Positions 1-27,673 of a DNA stretch of 27,673 nucleotides are shown piece by piece. The stretch lies in IMG/VR virus record IMGVR_UViG_3300016467_000254, positions 1-27,673 of that record, one strand, 5' to 3'. The notes under the pieces were generated by a model that saw only the letters and a list, made by a program, of their open reading frames with translations, searched no databases and was not told the DNA's origin. This DNA is from a virus. Taxonomy: Duplodnaviria; Caudoviricetes. Each line of letters starts with the position of its first letter. Position 1 is the first letter of the stretch. The translations under genes and the position numbers were made by a program.

Positions 1-133
1 GCCTATCTGCTTATAGCTCCAATCGTTTTCCATCCATAGCAAGGTAATCAAATGCTCAAGGCTTCCGCTTAAAGTGCTGGTCAATAAATAGCCTGGCTCG
101 GATGAATTTGTGATGTTGTGCGGTGAGGGTCAT
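1..133 (-). pseudogene. Small gene running off the window edge, apparently frameshifted; possible HTH protein
   Basis: ATG at 133 overlaps the upstream TGA and reads MTLTAQHHKFIRARLFIDQHFKRKP*. Removing one base near 60-61 continues it as LEHLITLLWMENDWSYKQIG, which is HTH-like. Confidence 0.35.
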
Positions 134-456
134 TTCATGGCGTTTAAATCTTCATTCAATCGTTCGTGAAAGCTTTCTTCGCTGTCATCACTTGACAACA
201 ACCAGTCTATCCGCTGCAAGTAAATTTGTGCCAATTTCAAATGAACGATGCCCATTTTAAACTGCACAATAGTTTCGTGTGACCATTCTGGATGGTAGGC
301 CTCACTTGGATATTTATCGAAGTATTCAGGATCGATGCTAATTTCTCGCTTCTCTTCCTTGCTTAGCTCTTTGCCGTTGTTATCTATGATACTTTGCAGT
401 TCTTCAATAACATCTGTGAATTGGTATTGAATGTAGTTAAATCGTCCTCCGCTCAT
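130..456 (-). CDS. Conserved phage hypothetical protein
   Basis: 108 aa with MSGGxFxY N-terminus and RIDWLLSxDDxEESF motif, recognisable from phage hypotheticals; ATGA overlaps at both ends. Confidence 0.8.
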   Translation of the reverse strand: MSGGRFNYIQYQFTDVIEELQSIIDNNGKELSKEEKREISIDPEYFDKYPSEAYHPEWSHETIVQFKMGIVHLKLAQIYLQRIDWLLSSDDSEESFHERLNEDLNAMK

Positions 457-578
457 TTGTTATGTGTTTTACAATGTGGACAAATGGGGAGGCTCTTTTT
501 ACCTCCCCTTATTGTTTGTGTGAATAGCTTCCGGCAGTTACGGCACTTAATCCACTTGGCGGTGATTTGCTTAGTCAT
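453..578 (-). CDS. Small zinc-ribbon protein (41 aa, not in ORF track)
   Basis: Manual translation MTKQITAKWIKCRNCRKLFTQTIRGGKKSLPICPHCKTHNK*; two CxxC pairs; stop overlaps the next ATG. Confidence 0.75.
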   Translation of the reverse strand: MTKQITAKWIKCRNCRKLFTQTIRGGKKSLPICPHCKTHNK

Positions 579-618
579 CAAAAGTATTAATACAATAGTT
601 TAAAAATTGCTCATGTTG

Positions 619-1086
619 TTATTTTGTATTCAGCAAAACATTTGTATCAAATCTTCTATACATCATTCTTTCTTGATCGTATACTATAAATCTATGTCCT
701 TTCATGTGATGTTTTTTAGTTAGCCAAATAACATCTAAATAATGTTCTGGATTATAAGACCAGTGATGTTTTTCAAATCCTTCTTTTTTTAATTTATTAG
801 ACTTTAATTTTGCTAATTCCTTTTCAGGATATTTAATTTTCCATTTAAAATTATTTAATGGATTGTGTTTTGACTTTCCTGAATACAATCTATGATGCTT
901 TTCTCTGCCTCTTTTCCTTTCTTTTTCTATATAACCTTCCTTTTGTTTATTTGCAATGTAGTTTTCCTTAACATCATTTTTATTGCATTCTTTACATTTA
1001 TTTAAATATCCATCACCCATTTGAGGATGTTTATAAAACTGATCTAAAGGCTTAACTACATTGCATTTAAAACATATTTTTTCCAT
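619..1086 (-). CDS. Putative HNH-like (homing-type) endonuclease with N-terminal Zn-binding domain; possibly truncated by a premature TAA
   Basis: CxxC...FY...DG...CxxC N-terminus and EKHHWSY...VIWLTKKHHMKGH His-rich core; markedly AT-rich relative to neighbours. Confidence 0.7.
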   Translation of the reverse strand: MEKICFKCNVVKPLDQFYKHPQMGDGYLNKCKECNKNDVKENYIANKQKEGYIEKERKRGREKHHRLYSGKSKHNPLNNFKWKIKYPEKELAKLKSNKLKKEGFEKHHWSYNPEHYLDVIWLTKKHHMKGHRFIVYDQERMMYRRFDTNVLLNTK

Positions 1087-1131
1087 AATATTATTTTAGA
1101 CAAATATACGACTAAAATAATTAAAACGGAA
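1081..1131 (-). promoter_or_regulatory. Bacteroidota -7 promoter element (TATATTTG) inside a hairpin covering the HNH start codon
   Basis: TATATTTG at 1101-1108 (minus), flanked by a perfect 10-bp inverted repeat (1090-1099/1112-1121); lower stem TTCCGT/ATGGAA includes the ATG. Confidence 0.7.
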
Positions 1132-1132
1132 A

Positions 1133-1432
1133 TTAAAACGGAAGTCCTAAGACATCATCATTAATACTTACTGCAACCGTGCTTCCAGATACAAATACCT
1201 GCTCTTGCTTCTTCTCAGGTGCCTTCAAGTTTCCTATGTATACCTTTGGAGCTTTGGCTTCGCGTTGCTCTTTGGTTTGGTTGATTTGCACGCTGCCGCT
1301 ATTTCCGTACTGGTCGGGTGTTTCGTTCAGCCATACGGTAATATTCAGCCACTTGTTGCCGTTCTTGTCGGTGGTGATGGCTTCCTTTGGAATCTTGCTG
1401 AGGTTGATGCCTCCGTTGAGAAATTTGTTCAT
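1133..1432 (-). CDS. ssb: Single-stranded DNA-binding protein (Bacteroidota-phage type)
   Basis: 99 aa with INLSKI...DQYGN...KEQRE...YIGN motifs and an acidic tail ending DD..LPF; near the annealase. Confidence 0.75.
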   Translation of the reverse strand: MNKFLNGGINLSKIPKEAITTDKNGNKWLNITVWLNETPDQYGNSGSVQINQTKEQREAKAPKVYIGNLKAPEKKQEQVFVSGSTVAVSINDDVLGLPF

Positions 1433-1437
1433 TGTTG

Positions 1438-1617
1438 TTAATTTAATAAATCAATAATATCGTCAAGAGACGAGTTTACAAAGAAGGTTGTCTTTTCAAG
1501 GTCGTTCATTACAATAGCGCAGTTTCCTTGTTCAGTTACAACTGTTGCCCGGATGTAAAGGATGCCACTGATAGCAATCAGCACCCTGCCTATCCTTATT
1601 GCGTTAATGCTTATCAT
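1438..1617 (-). CDS. Small hypothetical beta-rich protein (59 aa, not in ORF track)
   Basis: MISINAIRIGRVLIAISGILYIRATVVTEQGNCAIVMNDLEKTTFFVNSSLDDIIDLLN*; fills the gap exactly with an ATGA overlap. Confidence 0.7.
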   Translation of the reverse strand: MISINAIRIGRVLIAISGILYIRATVVTEQGNCAIVMNDLEKTTFFVNSSLDDIIDLLN

Positions 1618-2090
1618 TTGAGGGTAACTGTTACGGTGGTGGTGGATGTTTTTGAAGGAGGGTAGATGTGTGAAATAACGCCATCTTCGTTGATTACCTC
1701 AATCCCTTCAATCGGTATCATCTTAATGAATTCCTGGCGTTTCTTTATTTTTTCATCAAGTTCTTGGCGCATTGTCATAAGCTCCAATAGCTCCAAATCT
1801 CCGCACTCTTCAAAGTTGTATTTAACACCTGCCTCACGGATGGCGAGCTTGGCATTCACCTTGTCAAAGGTCTTACCATACTTTTCAGCTTCTGTTATGC
1901 AGGCCGCTTTGAAGTCCTTGTTGCCTGTTATCTTGTCGATAATCTCTTCCATGCACTTCAAGGTTATGAGTGCCTTAATCGGGTCCTCATGGCCGTCTAA
2001 AATGCGCTCGATGGCATCGTTGACAAAGCGCTGGCGTTCTCCCTTGTCGGTGTAGAAGAGCGATAGGACGCTGGTGGTGGTTAGTTCCAT
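1614..2090 (-). CDS. Conserved Bacteroidota-phage protein, possibly Tad3-like anti-Thoeris family
   Basis: GxxDPIKA..LKCME, AGVKYNFEECGD and C-terminal YPPSKTSTTTV motifs. Family assignment is from memory and unverified. Confidence 0.5.
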   Translation of the reverse strand: MELTTTSVLSLFYTDKGERQRFVNDAIERILDGHEDPIKALITLKCMEEIIDKITGNKDFKAACITEAEKYGKTFDKVNAKLAIREAGVKYNFEECGDLELLELMTMRQELDEKIKKRQEFIKMIPIEGIEVINEDGVISHIYPPSKTSTTTVTVTLK

Positions 2091-2094
2091 TGTG

Positions 2095-2277
2095 TTATGT
2101 GTGTTTTAGAAAGATACTTAATATATGAGCTGAATCCGCATCAAGTGAAAATATGTTATCGTCTACATCTGAAACGATAGTGATATAAACTTGGTTGCCT
2201 ACCCTGTCAGCGGTGAGGGAACAAGCCCCGTCAACTATCTGGAGCTTGTTATTGGTTACGGTGATTTCCTGGCTCAT
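2095..2277 (-). CDS. Hypothetical protein
   Basis: 60 aa ORF with ATGA overlap to the upstream gene. Confidence 0.7.
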   Translation of the reverse strand: MSQEITVTNNKLQIVDGACSLTADRVGNQVYITIVSDVDDNIFSLDADSAHILSIFLKHT

Positions 2278-2921
2278 TCGGTGTCGTTTACTACGTTATG
2301 GAAAGCATTCATAGCATTCTCAATGGCCTTGCGCTGGTCTTCGGTGAGGTTAAAGTTATCAAGGCACTTCTGCCCTACCTCCATCTCGCCTTCTGTTATC
2401 CGCTTAATGGCTTGCAACAACTGCTTGTCTGTAATGTCTGGTTTGATGTCAATCATCTCTTCAGGCACATATACAGGCTGTTCGTAGATGTCGGGAGTGT
2501 ACCACTTAACACCATTACTCATTGCGCGGGCAAAAAGCATATTGCGGGGAAATTTGTCGAGGTTCTTTGTGCCTGCTTTCTTGGCATCATCAATGGTGAA
2601 GGTGCTAACGCCCAAAGATTCCTTACCCTGGAAGAATTCAATGCTGCAAGCCTTGTCATCATGCTGCTTTACCTTGTAGTCGTACTTTCCGAATGACTTA
2701 ACGCGAGCTGCCATAAGACCAGCACCTACGACTGGTTTGCCAGCTATGATGTGGATGCCATTCATGGATGCCATGGGGGAAATGCCCATTTCCTGACCGG
2801 CCAAGATCTTGACTACGGCTTGGTGTACGCTTTTAATGTCTTGGAATAGTCCTGACTTGAAGAATACTTCACCGATGGATAACGCATCGGCTGCGGTTCT
2901 GACGATTTCGTTGTTTTTCAT
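2274..2921 (-). CDS. RecT-like single-strand annealing protein
   Basis: KSGLF..QAVVKILAGQEMG..P..SM.GIHII.GKP and PRNMLFARAMSNG motifs typical of phage RecT/Redbeta-like SSAPs; in a cluster with ssb. Confidence 0.8.
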   Translation of the reverse strand: MKNNEIVRTAADALSIGEVFFKSGLFQDIKSVHQAVVKILAGQEMGISPMASMNGIHIIAGKPVVGAGLMAARVKSFGKYDYKVKQHDDKACSIEFFQGKESLGVSTFTIDDAKKAGTKNLDKFPRNMLFARAMSNGVKWYTPDIYEQPVYVPEEMIDIKPDITDKQLLQAIKRITEGEMEVGQKCLDNFNLTEDQRKAIENAMNAFHNVVNDTE

Positions 2922-2938
2922 TGTGTGTGTGTGTTTTG

Positions 2939-2968
2939 TAAATGTACTAAATTAACTATTCTGAAAAA
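2939..2968 (-). promoter_or_regulatory. Putative early promoter (-7 TACATTTA)
   Basis: TACATTTA at 2939-2946, identical to the element at 3759-3766, followed by an ACAC-rich leader and ATG. Confidence 0.55.
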
Positions 2969-3111
2969 AGTTTTTTTATCGCCCTTGTAAGGCTTCCATG
3001 TTGTTGCTTTAAACCTTGCGCCTCATCAGGCTTAAGGTATACATAATAAGATTTTACCTTAGTTACTGGATCTTTGCGCGGCCTTCCTCTTTTTTTCTTA
3101 GTTTTGTCCAT
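2956..3111 (-). CDS. Small DNA-binding protein, AT-hook plus probable ribbon-helix-helix (51 aa, not in ORF track)
   Basis: MDKTKKKRGRPRKDPVTKVKSYYVYLKPDEAQGLKQQHGSLTRAIKKLFSE*; RGRP motif, alternating beta strand, then two short helices. Confidence 0.75.
   Translation of the reverse strand: MDKTKKKRGRPRKDPVTKVKSYYVYLKPDEAQGLKQQHGSLTRAIKKLFSE
3073..3106 (+). promoter_or_regulatory. Antisense Bacteroidota-type promoter
   Basis: TTTG (3073-3076)-N22-TAGTTTTG (3099-3106) on the + strand, about 30 nt upstream of a + strand terminator. Confidence 0.55.
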
Positions 3112-3165
3112 TCGAACGTGTTTTATTGTGTGTGGCCTGAGGGTAAAACCTCAGGTTTTTTATTT
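3110..3165 (+). ncRNA. Candidate ~50-nt antisense sRNA
   Basis: Bracketed by a + strand promoter and a + strand intrinsic terminator; unstructured 5' seed GUGUUUUAUUGUGUGU. Confidence 0.5.
3134..3165 (+). terminator. Intrinsic terminator, + strand
   Basis: GGCCTGAGG-GTAAAA-CCTCAGGTT stem-loop followed by TTTTTTATTT; the U-tract is on the + strand only. Confidence 0.7.
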
Positions 3166-3176
3166 CCACACTGGTT

Positions 3177-3208
3177 AAAAATTAGCCAGTCATAGACATA
3201 ACCGGCCA
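3177..3208 (-). terminator. Possible terminator or processing hairpin, - strand
   Basis: TGGCCGGTTAT-GTCT-ATGACTGGCTA (11 bp, 3 G-U pairs valid only on minus) followed by ATTTTT. Confidence 0.45.
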
Positions 3209-3226
3209 TTGCTTACTATACCTCAT

Positions 3227-3364
3227 CTATACCAATTCGCCTTCATAAATCCACGCCCAGGATAGGCTTCCTTCGGTGGACTTTATAATGTCATCAGCTT
3301 CCTTGATGCTATCCGCTTGTATTATTTTATATTCGGATGCAAAAGTGTAAAGAAATTTTTTCAT
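3227..3364 (-). CDS. Small hypothetical protein (45 aa, not in ORF track)
   Basis: MKKFLYTFASEYKIIQADSIKEADDIIKSTEGSLSWAWIYEGELV*; ATGA overlap. Confidence 0.65.
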   Translation of the reverse strand: MKKFLYTFASEYKIIQADSIKEADDIIKSTEGSLSWAWIYEGELV

Positions 3365-3546
3365 AGTGCTTCAATGTTGTTAAATGGTAAAAAATAATCA
3401 GGCACCAATAGACCTGAAAATGTGTGTTTGATTTTCGGATCCAGTTGCTCGAAGGCCTCGCTGTTAATGGCAATCTTTCGAGGCGCACGGAGGTATTTTA
3501 TTATATACGCTCCGATAATTTGGTGGATAATAGTTTCAGTTATCAT
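3361..3546 (-). CDS. Hypothetical protein
   Basis: 61 aa ORF coupled to neighbours on both sides. Confidence 0.7.
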   Translation of the reverse strand: MITETIIHQIIGAYIIKYLRAPRKIAINSEAFEQLDPKIKHTFSGLLVPDYFLPFNNIEAL

Positions 3547-3625
3547 ACCAATCTTTTTTGAGTTCTTCCCATCCTACGAGCATTCCTCCAACAAGTAAGA
3601 TGCAAAGGGGGATTATTAAAGACAT
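3536..3625 (-). CDS. Small membrane peptide (29 aa)
   Basis: MSLIIPLCILLVGGMLVGWEELKKDWYDN*; this is the 3' part of track ORF 3536..3787, and its ATG overlaps the upstream stop. Confidence 0.6.
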   Translation of the reverse strand: MSLIIPLCILLVGGMLVGWEELKKDWYDN

Positions 3626-3738
3626 AGGCCAAGTATTACCAGCACTGCGGCTGCGATGAGTAAAGCGATGTCGCGACGGCTTGGGTTGTATTCGGGCTCT
3701 TGCTCGAATTTCCATTGGATGTTTTCGTTCTTTTTCAT
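3616..3738 (-). CDS. Small membrane peptide (40 aa, not in ORF track)
   Basis: MKKNENIQWKFEQEPEYNPSRRDIALLIAAAVLVILGLCL*; preceded by a promoter and ACACACAATG leader. Confidence 0.7.
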   Translation of the reverse strand: MKKNENIQWKFEQEPEYNPSRRDIALLIAAAVLVILGLCL

Positions 3739-3758
3739 TGTGTGTGTTTTTATTTTTA

Positions 3759-3788
3759 TAAATGTACGAAATTGTTTTGAACTGCAAA
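3759..3788 (-). promoter_or_regulatory. Early promoter, Bacteroidota type
   Basis: TTTG (3785-3788)-N18-TACATTTA (3759-3766) in an intergenic gap. Confidence 0.65.
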
Positions 3789-3795
3789 ATTTATT

Positions 3796-4569
3796 TTAAT
3801 CTATGTTGCAAAAACACTCAAATGTGGGATCTTGGTCGAATAAATCTCCATGAATTGTACTTAGTTCAAGTAGTTTTTGATAACTTATTTCTTTTTTAAA
3901 TGTGCCTATTTTTATTCCTTGGTTTAACCAAAAATCTTCTTTATCTATCCACCACTGTAATAAATCCGGTCGCTCTTTTGCTATTTTCATCAATTTACCT
4001 TTTCCCTTCAGAAAACAGCAATCACAGTTGCCATAGGGCTCGACAACTTGTAAGTCAAAGTCCTGCAATGCCCACCAGTTCAATACATCTTGTTTTGTTA
4101 CCTTCCATCTTACTAATGGCATTTCCAAATCTATATAATTTGGCAATCCATTCATTTTTCCCCATCTATGCGGTTCATCATATCTTATTCCATTATAAAA
4201 AGTCCAACTTTTTAATCCTCTACTTTTTAAATATCTTTTTGATGTTTGTATTTTTAATTGATCTGTACAAAATCGGCTCATTCTATTTGGAATAAAACCA
4301 TTTTTATGATTTATCATTTCATCGAACGGTCTCCCATCTCTCGAAGCTGTTTGATAAGTCACCACTTCAAAACTATTAGGCTTCCTATATTCGAGCCAGA
4401 CAATACCTAAATTCCATCTTTTATCACATTCATTAATGAAATCCAAAGTTTCAGGCATTTCCTTGCCAGTATTTTGGAATGTAACGATATAGTCCTGCAA
4501 TCCTTCATCTATTAATCGCTTGGTCATGTATGCCGATGTTCGGCCTCCGCTAAAGTTTATAATATTCAT
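3796..4569 (-). CDS. PAPS-reductase-like / adenine nucleotide alpha-hydrolase (PP-loop) protein
   Basis: FSGGRTSAYM PP-loop, NTGKEMPETLDF, RFCTxxLKI, GIRYDE, GNCDCCFLK and terminal CFC. Confidence 0.85.
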   Translation of the reverse strand: MNIINFSGGRTSAYMTKRLIDEGLQDYIVTFQNTGKEMPETLDFINECDKRWNLGIVWLEYRKPNSFEVVTYQTASRDGRPFDEMINHKNGFIPNRMSRFCTDQLKIQTSKRYLKSRGLKSWTFYNGIRYDEPHRWGKMNGLPNYIDLEMPLVRWKVTKQDVLNWWALQDFDLQVVEPYGNCDCCFLKGKGKLMKIAKERPDLLQWWIDKEDFWLNQGIKIGTFKKEISYQKLLELSTIHGDLFDQDPTFECFCNID

Positions 4570-4573
4570 ATTT

Positions 4574-4903
4574 TTATTTTTCAGGCCCTACAAACATTAC
4601 CTCTTCTCCTCTGATGATCATGTCTATTAAGGTTTCCACCACTTCCCTTTGTGCTGGGTTCAGTAGTCGGATGCGGTCGCTGATGGCATCAACCGTCATC
4701 ACATCACTTTGCAGCTCGTCGCGTATAGCTTGGCGCACATCATCAGGGAAGTGGATGGAGGCTTGGAAGTCGTTTAAGATGTAATCAAGGCGCGTGATAT
4801 AATTGCGCAAGATTGGCTTGCTTAAAGCTCGATTGAAATCAAGACCAAACTCCTTAGCAATTTTAATGTGGTGCAGGAATGCGACGAGTGAGGTGGCTTT
4901 CAT
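4574..4903 (-). CDS. Hypothetical protein
   Basis: 109 aa helical ORF in the operon. Confidence 0.75.
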   Translation of the reverse strand: MKATSLVAFLHHIKIAKEFGLDFNRALSKPILRNYITRLDYILNDFQASIHFPDDVRQAIRDELQSDVMTVDAISDRIRLLNPAQREVVETLIDMIIRGEEVMFVGPEK

Positions 4904-4906
4904 GCT

Positions 4907-5206
4907 TTAAAATTTATAATATGGATCATGCTCGAAATACAGAGATGCTTCGCGCTTGTCATGGATGGCCTTGTTAGTACAAGTGATGCAAATCTCGCGC
5001 TTGTTGTCGCTTTTGCCGTAGTAACTGGCAAGTGATTTATTGACTTTGCACACTGGGCATATTTTTTTTGCACCATTATACTTCCGCTCGTTACGTTCCT
5101 GCGAAATGCAGTCGTAACAAACGCTCGCATAGTTATCTTTATTTTGCGGTGCTATTTGAAATCGTTCGTAGTCTTTCAACTTCTTACATCGTAGGCAGGT
5201 TTTCAT
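4907..5206 (-). CDS. Tandem zinc-finger protein
   Basis: Four CxxC motifs in two repeats resembling the N-terminus of the 619..1086 protein; no nuclease core visible. Confidence 0.75.
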   Translation of the reverse strand: MKTCLRCKKLKDYERFQIAPQNKDNYASVCYDCISQERNERKYNGAKKICPVCKVNKSLASYYGKSDNKREICITCTNKAIHDKREASLYFEHDPYYKF

Positions 5207-5298
5207 TTCAATTTCTTTATTTCGTTATCTACTATAATTGCAAGCACCAGCACGCCTACAAAGGCGGCCAGTGCAAGGATAAAGCTAATTTTCAGCAT
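5203..5298 (-). CDS. Small membrane peptide (31 aa, not in ORF track)
   Basis: MLKISFILALAAFVGVLVLAIIVDNEIKKLK*; overlaps both neighbours. Confidence 0.65.
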   Translation of the reverse strand: MLKISFILALAAFVGVLVLAIIVDNEIKKLK

Positions 5299-5725
5299 CA
5301 TTGATTCGTTTTTTTAGGCGTTCTATTTTGGCTTTCTTAATCTTTTCAATGCCATCGTTAACATCGAACAGATAGGCCATTTGTTCCAACATAATAAAAC
5401 AGTCCGCTATTTCCTCCCTGATAGCTTCCTGGTTCTCGGATCCAAGGAGGTTCTTACTTAGTTCCTTTTGCAGCTCTGACATTTCCTCGATGGCCTTGAC
5501 CATTTGGTTGGTGGCACCGAAATGGTCGGTAGCCTTTGCAGTGTAATCGTCACCTAATGTAGCCCTCTTAATATACATAGCTGCGTCCAATAACTCTTCG
5601 TAAAGGTGTTGTGTCCAGTCGGCTGGGCTTAGATCGGTACGGTCTACTGTGGTGCCGTATTTTTGAAATCCTGCCATTTCGCGCTTGGCAAGATCGCGCG
5701 CTACGGCTTCAAGTGTTTTACTCAT
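5285..5725 (-). CDS. Fusion of two MazG-like nucleotide pyrophosphohydrolase domains
   Basis: N-half GFQKYGTT.DR.DL...W.QH.YEELLDAAMY; C-half HFG...Q..KAIEEMSEL...IREEIADCFIMLEQ. Confidence 0.75.
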   Translation of the reverse strand: MSKTLEAVARDLAKREMAGFQKYGTTVDRTDLSPADWTQHLYEELLDAAMYIKRATLGDDYTAKATDHFGATNQMVKAIEEMSELQKELSKNLLGSENQEAIREEIADCFIMLEQMAYLFDVNDGIEKIKKAKIERLKKRINDAEN

Positions 5726-5915
5726 GTGTTTTAAGTTGTGATGTTAAAAATTCGATTTCTTTAATGTAATCGTGATTTGCTTCGATGAATGCGTCGTAAT
5801 CGCCTTCCTCGTTCTTTTGGCGGAGGCTTCTGATAACGTCTTTGTGCTTTATGATTTCGGCATTAAGAATGTCGAGCATTTCCTCGACGAAATGGTCTTT
5901 AATTTCGAGTGTCAT
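5718..5915 (-). CDS. Hypothetical protein (65 aa; start revised to ATG 5915)
   Basis: ATG preceded by the AAATCTACACACA leader motif. Confidence 0.7.
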   Translation of the reverse strand: MTLEIKDHFVEEMLDILNAEIIKHKDVIRSLRQKNEEGDYDAFIEANHDYIKEIEFLTSQLKTHE

Positions 5916-5974
5916 TGTGTGTAGATTTATTGTGTGAAAAATTGCAGTTGTTAGGATGCTGCGCCCCTTGGGTG

Positions 5975-6172
5975 TTAAAATCGAAGTTCGTGCAAATCCC
6001 AAAAATTGTTATTTTGAGCGTATGAAATTGGATTTTCAAGTTTCTCTAATTGTTTTGAAATCTCAAAAGCTGCTTTATCTCTCAATTGCTGCTGCCTAAA
6101 AGTTTTTGGCATGACTGAATAAATAGCCTCTAACTGTTTTTTTAAATCTGAGATTCGTTGTGTAGTGTTCAT
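5975..6172 (-). CDS. Hypothetical protein, first gene of the early region
   Basis: 65 aa directly downstream of a consensus promoter and an ACACACAATG leader. Confidence 0.75.
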   Translation of the reverse strand: MNTTQRISDLKKQLEAIYSVMPKTFRQQQLRDKAAFEISKQLEKLENPISYAQNNNFWDLHELRF

Positions 6173-6194
6173 TGTGTGTAGTTTTATTGTGATT

Positions 6195-6224
6195 CAAAGT
6201 TAATAATTTTTATATCACTACAAA
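6195..6224 (-). promoter_or_regulatory. Early promoter, Bacteroidota consensus
   Basis: TTTG (6221-6224)-N18-TAACTTTG (6195-6202). Confidence 0.75.
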
Positions 6225-6248
6225 ATTAATTTTACCCATTTATAAAAA

Positions 6249-6266
6249 ACTACTAATGTTAGTAGT
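6249..6266. promoter_or_regulatory. Palindromic operator candidate
   Basis: ACTACTAA-TG-TTAGTAGT, a perfect 8-2-8 dyad upstream of the promoter. Confidence 0.5.
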
Positions 6267-6268
6267 AT

Positions 6269-6303
6269 AAACAAAACACCCCACCTGTAGAAACAGGCAG
6301 GGT
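6269..6303 (-). terminator. Intrinsic terminator ending the late/lysis operon
   Basis: ACCCTGCCTGT-TTCT-ACAGGTGGGGT (11 bp, 2 G-U) followed by GTTTTGTTT. Confidence 0.75.
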
Positions 6304-6365
6304 AAACGACTGCTTACATGAGAAAAAAAACAACGAAAAAACCGATTCGTCAGTCGTGATCCATG

Positions 6366-6878
6366 CTATCCTTCATTCAAACTTATTTCGCCCTTTTCAG
6401 GTAGTACTATCTTTCGCACATTCCAAGGAGTCACGCTGTACGCTGGCCGACGTGGTTTGTACAGTCTTGTTTTATCTATCCGTACAATAGAAACGGAATT
6501 GCCTTGGTTACCACCCAACACATGGTAAAAGTACTTATCCTCACCAACATACAGCCCTACATGACCACCTCCATTGCGTTTGAAGGTCAACACATCACCA
6601 AGCATTGGCTCGACAACAGGAACTCCCCAGTCCGCCCAACTTAACGCCCAGAGCGGGTTCTTTGCAGGGATTCGTTCAGCTCGCTTCATGATCACTGCCA
6701 TGAACAAACCACACCAAGGTATCTCGTCGGCATTGTAGGCAGTGAGGCTCAACTCTTGCGCCCATCCCATTATCACCGGGTTGTGCTTAGTGCCAGCTAT
6801 TTCTTTAACGCCTATTAGCTCAATAGCTTTGAGCAAGTGGCGTGGAGCTTGTTCTAAATTGAGCCAGTCGTAATTCAT
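6366..6878 (-). CDS. Endolysin, NlpC/P60-CHAP-like peptidase (TIGR02594-type); start revised to ATG 6878
   Basis: GVKEI.G..HNP.I, DEIPWCGLF (catalytic Cys), GGGHVGLY (His) and VLGGNQGNSV; located at the end of the lysis cassette. Confidence 0.88.
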   Translation of the reverse strand: MNYDWLNLEQAPRHLLKAIELIGVKEIAGTKHNPVIMGWAQELSLTAYNADEIPWCGLFMAVIMKRAERIPAKNPLWALSWADWGVPVVEPMLGDVLTFKRNGGGHVGLYVGEDKYFYHVLGGNQGNSVSIVRIDKTRLYKPRRPAYSVTPWNVRKIVLPEKGEISLNEG

Positions 6879-7186
6879 TTGAAAATATGGTTGTAAAATG
6901 TGTTGAAGGTAATATTCCAAACTATGCCGATGTAAATAAACGGCATCCATCCATGGCCGTTATACACCACCACTGCACCGGCCAGCGAAAGGATCATGCA
7001 GGACTTTGCCAAGTGCCAGGCATCAACAGGGTAAGAGCCTATCCGTGTGCAATACTTCCAGCTTTCGCGTTTATACCAAAAGCGCGCATTCCAATGCCTG
7101 AACCTGGAGGAATAATAACGCTCATGCTCGATGGTATCCATGAAAGCATTGAAGATGGCAGCGATGGCAATCAATAAGTAGCTCAT
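6875..7186 (-). CDS. Membrane protein in lysis cassette; start revised to ATG 7186
   Basis: Three hydrophobic segments and a DAWHLAK motif; ATGA overlaps at both ends. Confidence 0.7.
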   Translation of the reverse strand: MSYLLIAIAAIFNAFMDTIEHERYYSSRFRHWNARFWYKRESWKYCTRIGSYPVDAWHLAKSCMILSLAGAVVVYNGHGWMPFIYIGIVWNITFNTFYNHIFK

Positions 7187-27259: not shown

Positions 27260-27292
27260 CAAAACTAATACATTTCCAAAATATTCACCAAA
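27260..27292 (-). promoter_or_regulatory. Promoter of the packaging/late operon
   Basis: TTTG (27289-27292)-N21-TAGTTTTG (27260-27267), 4 nt before the terS ATG. Confidence 0.7.
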
Positions 27293-27469: not shown

Positions 27470-27493
27470 GGGGTAAAGGTACTTATTTAGACA

Positions 27494-27673
27494 AAAGTTA
27501 CATGAAAGTTACAATAGTTACATGAAAGTTACACGAAAGTTACACGATAATTTTTTATAATTAACTGATAATCAAATAGTTAACTACCAAAGTTACAAAG
27601 TTACACGATTTTATAGGAAAATACATTCGTTACAGAAGTTACACTATATTATATATATATAATAATAATAATA
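27494..27673. repeat. Iteron-like GTTACA array with IHF-box and AT-rich tract; candidate replication origin
   Basis: Nine GTTACA copies at 27497, 27508, 27517, 27528, 27539, 27592, 27600, 27629 and 27638; AATCAAATAGTTA (WATCAANNNNTTR) at 27570-27582; pure AT end. Confidence 0.7.

Follow-up and report, generated by a model that had tools for sequence, protein, structure and literature searches.

General features of the window

The window, that is, the whole stretch of DNA analysed here, is a virus record of 27.7 kb, and all of its recognised genes are located on the minus strand. The PHROGs matches include terminase, portal, protease and major head protein genes, which we read as a head of the HK97 type. 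A RecT-like gene (PHROGs match) is situated in the small-gene region at 1–6200. An integrase was not found among the 31 proteins of the window and nine proteins of relatives scanned with PHROGs, and a repressor or antirepressor was not found in the same proteins either. The relatives include G001 (L001/L003), L033 and L034, which are 84–87% identical to the window over aligned DNA, and the complete sister genomes G002 and G003.

The gene starts of the window lack Shine-Dalgarno motifs, and several come after TAnnTTTG boxes. Bacteroidota ribosomes are reported to disregard Shine-Dalgarno sequences (PMC6847099), and TAnnTTTG is described as the primary promoter type of Bacteroidota (PMC7366714, PMC9723704). 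We therefore infer that the host of the phage is a Bacteroidota bacterium.

Other elements were observed in the window. Repeated AAAGTTAC(A) units together with an AT-rich tract at about 27490–27650, near the contig end, are possibly a replication origin. A strong GC hairpin at 486–508 lies within a small cysteine-motif ORF ending at 453; it is kept in L033 and L034 and has a weak Rfam match to the L13 leader (E = 0.06). Hairpins whose loop reads TTTCTA are found repeatedly, at the late/early boundary terminator and ahead of early genes (window 6277–6304; G001 26373, G002 11674, G003 16367 and L034 373, in script coordinates).

The AT-hook gene and the antisense unit

The locus consists of a small gene on the minus strand and a putative transcription unit facing it on the plus strand. 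The features are as follows.

2956–3111, minus strand: gene of a 51-aa AT-hook and predicted ribbon-helix-helix protein, the cis target (Pfam AT_hook at its cut-off)
3112–3135, minus strand: leader of the AT-hook gene, CACAATAAA-x-C-N8-ATG, in register with the leaders of genes 6172 and 5915
3183–3208, minus strand: upstream hairpin on the mRNA strand, convergent with the plus-strand terminator
3073–3076, plus strand: −33-like TTTG in codons 12–13 of the AT-hook ORF, kept in 4/4 genomes
3099–3106, plus strand: −7 element TAnnTTTG, here TAGTTTTG, which predicts a start site at 3111
3111–3165, plus strand: predicted small RNA of about 53 nt with a single-stranded 5′ tail, a hairpin and a U-tract
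3111–3135, plus strand: seed or 5′ tail of 25 nt; 2/25 positions differ, in one of the three relatives
3134–3165, plus strand: intrinsic terminator, a core stem of 7–8 bp whose sequence has turned over, followed by a U-tract

The initial annotation had described a TTTG at 3073–3076, a 22-nt spacer and TAGTTTTG at 3099–3106, followed by a terminator stem at 3134–3157 and a U-tract, and all of these are present on the plus strand.

The model of the AT-hook protein (pLDDT 81) has helices at residues 28–38 and 41–50. The 30 structure matches listed were led by NikA, ORF56, PutA, NikR and Arc and were mostly known ribbon-helix-helix proteins, with low scores (Z 2.0–3.3; the best, Z 3.3, had an rmsd of 3.6 over 47 aligned residues). 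The AT-hook is followed by a predicted strand-helix-helix, putatively a ribbon-helix-helix, which is also the fold of CopG. The protein family is wider: at E up to 0.001 it comprises 28 representatives, and several of these are long repeat proteins matching the AT-hook only.

In the leader of the AT-hook gene, position −3 is C and position −6 is G; adenines there are reported to favour initiation (PMC6847099). No minus-strand TAnnTTTG box was found between the hairpin at 3183–3208 and the AUG of the AT-hook gene, so the gene is probably read through from the promoter of gene 3738 and weakly expressed. The hairpin at 3183–3208 folds at −13.9 kcal/mol on the minus strand and −3.3 kcal/mol on the plus strand, and its pairing is kept in the relatives, as judged by eye. 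It could be a weak terminator or a processing site. An ATA at 3124–3126 (minus strand), in frame with the AT-hook ORF, comes after ACACACA five codons before the ATG and may be a decayed or non-canonical start.

Distribution of the unit

The unit is carried by the three relatives G001, L033 and L034. The order of promoter, seed and terminator, whose conservation the initial annotation had offered as a check, is kept in these and in the window (4/4), and in all four genomes the unit co-occurs with the AT-hook gene. The AT-hook gene is absent from G002 and G003, in which the upstream gene runs straight into RecT. A genome-wide scan of G002 and G003 found no comparable antisense terminator with its own matching seed.

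Searching the viral collection with leader and architecture patterns returned G001 only. The protein search added two more metagenome contigs, and a protein search of genomes gave no match. A terminator was found behind the seed core in none of the 29 viral contigs carrying its 16 nt. The one distant homologue of the AT-hook/ribbon-helix-helix protein for which DNA was available (L047) overlaps its upstream gene, and no such unit was seen on reading its sequence. The match to L002/L035 was spurious, as it covers the K-rich N-terminus only. Within the collections searched, only a narrow clade carries the element.

Two insertions were observed near the unit. In G001, three tRNA-like genes (L003 4198–4295, 4508–4598 and 4670–4738) and a 60-aa ORF sit between the hairpin matching window 3183–3208 and the antisense terminator; the window, L033 and L034 lack this block. 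L033 has an inserted DNA methyltransferase gene (1989–2975) that separates the AT-hook gene from the RecT promoter, with no change in the antisense unit.

The antisense terminator

The genome-wide scan of the window gave two antisense terminator candidates, of which 3134–3165 is the stronger and the only intergenic one. It is the strongest short canonical antisense terminator of the window, and its counterpart in the near-complete G001 is the one intergenic antisense case of that genome. The stem sequence was replaced between the window and its relatives, yet the stem is fully paired in 4/4 genomes (7–8 bp). In a plain alignment, 4/7 stem pairs changed on both sides, which 7 of 500 shuffles attained; all of these two-sided changes fall between the window and the other three genomes. 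Pairing was found in 82% of the alignment cells of the stem, the rest being due to differing loop lengths.

The conservation shows a strand polarity. A G-U pair on the plus strand corresponds to a C·A mismatch on the mRNA strand in 3/3 relatives, at two different positions, and the plus-strand hairpin fold is 3–6 kcal/mol more stable than the mRNA-strand fold in 4/4 genomes. Among 57 contigs (4 DNA runs, 4 studies), 16 of the 21 listed substitutions are in the hairpin (3139–3156), none is in the seed (3111–3135), and three flank the −7 box or fall on its free position; the table leaves out differences near contig ends. One further contig difference beyond the table is at spacer position 3082.

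The plus-strand terminator is well supported by these sequence comparisons. Its strand-specific conservation, together with the retained promoter motif, supports a plus-strand transcription unit. A plus-strand protein gene ending at the terminator was rejected, since the sole ORF of at least 40 aa over it (3016–3195) runs through. The terminator hairpin can also be enclosed by an outer stem of 6 bp, 3130–3135 with 3166–3171, which leaves a 10-nt bulge rich in A; this stem shows compensation in G001 and a single mismatch in L033. On a plus-strand read-through RNA, this outer stem could mask part of the seed.

The putative antisense promoter

In F. psychrophilum, the promoter box is reported at −12 to −5 (PMC9723704). 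The antisense start site is therefore predicted at 3111, opposite the A of the AUG of the AT-hook gene. The whole promoter motif is located in codons 2–13 of the AT-hook ORF, a K-rich coding stretch, and is retained in 4/4 genomes (window, G001, L033 and L034). In L034, K-T-K has become K-S-I at the −7 box, yet only free and flanking positions of the box are altered.

The full pattern with a spacer of 17–23 nt occurs 4 times on the plus strand of the window, against 1.2 ± 1.1 in 200 shuffles, and with a spacer of 19–21 nt it does not occur there. The spacer of the antisense promoter is 22 nt, whereas that of the promoters of genes 6172 and 3738 is 18 nt. The chance of a −7 box 30–120 nt before a given plus-strand site is 4.6% in the window and 7.2% in the early region. 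When the same 16 residues were recoded with phage codon usage (20,000 trials), the −7 box appeared in 5% and both boxes in 0.6%. Third positions varied at 3/13 of the promoter codons, compared with 2–7/13 at the 5′ ends of six other genes, and codon conservation across the promoter is not above that of other gene 5′ ends. The antisense promoter is weaker evidence than the terminator, and we regard it as plausible, not established.

The octamer TAGTTTTG recurs at 27260–27267 (minus strand), 4 nt before the ATG of a 125-aa gene upstream of the large terminase. This position suggests a leaderless late transcript.

It is conceivable that no dedicated small RNA exists. The terminator might insulate the upstream operon (and the tRNA-like genes of G001) against antisense read-through, or a structure on the mRNA side might keep the AT-hook gene weakly translated, with the promoter motif as a by-product of K-rich codons. 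The four occurrences of the promoter pattern and its unremarkable conservation agree with this, and so do the fold of the mRNA strand, in which the hairpin is enclosed by the outer 6-bp stem and a 4-bp hairpin holds the AUG (−35.7 kcal/mol, z −4.6), and the pervasive antisense transcription reported for flavobacteria (PMC9723704). However, the G-U polarity speaks against an mRNA-side role of the main stem, as does the mismatch of L033 for the outer one. An insulator would leave the promoter at the right distance unexplained (0.6–7% by chance), and G002 and G003 manage without such a terminator at that place. We find an explanation without a dedicated RNA rather doubtful, and it is fairly likely that the RNA is made.

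The predicted small RNA

The predicted RNA folds at −15.6 kcal/mol (z −3.1). The initial annotation had called the seed unpaired, and the computed mean unpaired probability of 0.78 agrees that it largely is. The relative with seed differences is G001, at positions 3120 and 3135. An own intrinsic terminator, a free 5′ tail and a single hairpin, which are among the hallmarks of cis antisense RNAs of the RNAII/Sar type, are all found in the unit. In silico, its conserved single-stranded seed also pairs at the start codons of several mRNAs.

Rfam covariance models gave no match over the element in window 1–7000 at E up to 5, nor in L003, L033 and L034 at E up to 1. Membership of FopS, Sar, c4 or another Rfam family was therefore rejected. 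A match of the Sar model at 6278–6303 (E 4) is a chance hairpin away from the element.

Predicted pairing of the seed with early leaders

The four best trans sites, all on the minus strand, are as follows.

6168–6191, minus strand: leader and AUG of gene 6172, the first behind promoter TAACTTTG at 6202–6195
5912–5936, minus strand: leader and AUG of gene 5915
3733–3746, minus strand: 14-bp match spanning the AUG of gene 3738, the first behind TACATTTA at 3766–3759
2916–2929, minus strand: 14-bp match spanning the AUG of the RecT-like gene (2921), the first behind TACATTTA at 2946–2939

The match lengths given earlier were reproduced for gene 6172 (11 nt at 6181–6191 and 9 nt at 6171–6179), gene 5915 (11 nt at 5926–5936), genes 3738 and 2921 (10 nt each) and genes 5725 and 456 (8 nt each). 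For gene 2090, the longest Watson-Crick run is 8 nt, upstream of the AUG, instead of 7 nt. When G-U pairs were allowed, the four best matches reached 13–14 contiguous bp across the AUG, with the G-U at its G. Among 2764 mRNA-strand windows, the four best non-self duplexes were the starts of genes 5915, 6172, 2921 and 3738, at −23.1 to −21.5 kcal/mol; the next was at −20.0. The four sites are open (unpaired probability 0.73–0.93), and three of these targets are the first genes behind early promoter boxes.

Genes 5725, 456 and 2090 were rejected as targets, being at chance level (of the 2764 windows, gene 5725 ranked 10th and gene 456 23rd, and gene 2090 fell below the top 25). Seed matches of 8 nt are common, with 18 bins in the window, and one 11-nt match lies within the terminase gene. 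The initial annotation had proposed silencing of seven genes in trans. For four of them, including three that come first behind early promoters, this is physically plausible; for all seven it is not.

The seed copies, in register, the leader type of genes 6172 and 5915. For 4/7 other leaders, antisense 25-mers placed over the AUG bound the same set equally well, at −21.5 to −23.8 kcal/mol, while seeds confined upstream of the AUGs of other leaders were weaker (−11 to −18). The chance sites of the window seed in G002 and G003 reached −21 to −24. In a seed swap between the window and G001, the cognate pair was better in 5/8 cases, by about 1 kcal/mol on average, and no compensatory seed-target change was seen in this comparison. 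Three of the top six non-self matches of the G001 seed were flagged start leaders. The caveat attached to the original proposal, that the complementarity could arise from a shared leader class, still holds, since the seed is an in-register member of this class and AUG-spanning pseudo-seeds do equally well. Multi-target silencing cannot be separated from the shared leader class.

The leaders themselves differ between clades. At orthologous starts, the ATG is preceded by ACACA in the clade that carries the unit and by CTATAACAC in the clade that lacks it. The sister clade shares the leader CTATAACACATG at orthologous early starts (gene-strand coordinates: G002 4946, 8409 and 9794; G003 10861, 12805 and 14191). 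Because the shared leader differs at orthologous starts, the leaders changed in concert between the clades. The contrast between ACACA and CTATAACAC would fit a co-adaptation of seed and leaders, as a single contrast. G002 and G003 have uniform leaders without an antisense unit, so uniform leaders do not need a small RNA.

These data also bear on a countertranscript of the RNAII/Sar type that acts in cis only and tunes the AT-hook/ribbon-helix-helix gene alone, by pairing or by convergent transcription, with the trans matches as a by-product of the shared leader. In its favour, the AT-hook gene accompanies the unit in 4/4 genomes, and G002 and G003 lack both; the RNA is predicted to start opposite the A of the AUG; the duplex reaches −40.6 kcal/mol in cis versus about −22 in trans; and the anatomy is that reported for the 48-nt RNAII (PMC4485353). 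On the other hand, the early leaders are more open, and an RNA with such a free tail should bind them in any case; the 13–14-bp matches are located on AUGs, and the ACACACAATG leader is retained at the RecT start in all four genomes. We consider an action in cis alone rather unlikely.

Comparison with known systems

The initial annotation had named phage RNAs such as P1 c4 and P4 CI as precedents; pMV158 RNAII, for its architecture, and FopS/GibS, for their mechanism, are closer. RNAII is described as a countertranscript of about 50 nt with a single-stranded 5′ tail, one hairpin and a U-tail, in which the function is carried by the tail and translation is inhibited (PMC4485353). The small repressor CopG is reported to be encoded in the same operon on pMV158 (PMC4485353). 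RNAII differs in that it controls plasmid copy number and has the single cis target repB, which lies downstream of the small repressor gene. In the present case the replicon is a phage, the RNA is directed in cis at the small, putative ribbon-helix-helix gene, and further targets in trans are predicted.

Blocking of start codons by small RNAs is reported to work in Bacteroidota (PMC7366714, PMC11697453). The FopS family, with GibS, of Bacteroides thetaiotaomicron likewise uses an unpaired 5′ seed for binding close to start codons; the canonical promoter drives the FopS RNAs, whose targets are the first mRNAs of several polycistrons (PMC11697453, PMC7366714). According to the same reports, these small RNAs are host-encoded, 65–70 nt long, members of a 14-copy family and directed at glycan-uptake targets, whereas the phage unit is single-copy, antisense to a phage gene, has predicted phage mRNA targets and no Rfam match.

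P22 Sar and P1/P7 c4 are likewise antisense RNAs of phages and prevent the mRNA of a regulator from initiating translation, as reviewed (PMC12197685). They repress an antirepressor in temperate phages, and c4 carries its sites in loops; in the present phage, neither an antirepressor nor an integrase was found in the proteins scanned. A functional analogue is RegB/RegA of phage T4, through which many early mRNAs are reported to be inactivated via a shared translation-start motif (PMC3014915). That system is protein-based (nuclease and repressor), and its host uses Shine-Dalgarno sequences. A literature search at the level of titles and listings returned no description of such an RNA in a Bacteroidota phage.

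Proposed role

As a tentative reading, we propose a brake in cis and trans: the roughly 53-nt RNA would prevent the AT-hook/ribbon-helix-helix gene from being translated and would pair across four early start codons. The host primary sigma factor would transcribe the plus strand from about 3111 to the U-tract, and the free 5′ tail would occlude ribosomes, by analogy with RNAII and FopS. If the RNA is made, its free tail with 13–14-bp matches would probably act on open start codons, as FopS and GibS do on Bacteroides mRNAs. The RNA would accumulate during infection and lower the first cistrons of three early promoters. The targets and the lack of an integrase among the proteins scanned suggest a possible early-to-late role. 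The weights given to this brake and to its two alternatives follow from the probability that the RNA is made, the free tail, the 13–14-bp matches on open AUGs and the retention of the match in the clade.

The initial annotation had also considered carrier state and immunity. Immunity is the less likely reading, because no integrase was found among the 31 proteins of the window and nine of the relatives; a carrier state without integrase may be envisaged.

A more far-reaching reading joins these observations, and we offer it as a speculation that is rather improbable as a whole. One self-encoded RNA would time the early-to-late switch through a phage-specific ACACACA-AUG-AAA signature on early first cistrons. 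The seed U opposite the G of the AUG would let it cover start codons without a new one arising on the strand opposite its own. The leaders of the clade would have been shaped together with the RNA, which would make it the RNA counterpart of T4 RegB.

Bacteroidota ribosomes disregard Shine-Dalgarno sequences, so the shut-off of early translation by their phages wants explaining. If the RNA acts in cis only, it would be an ordinary countertranscript in a new host group. If the proposed brake is true, the shut-off of early translation would be explained by an RNA with which the phage silences its early regulon via a shared start signature.
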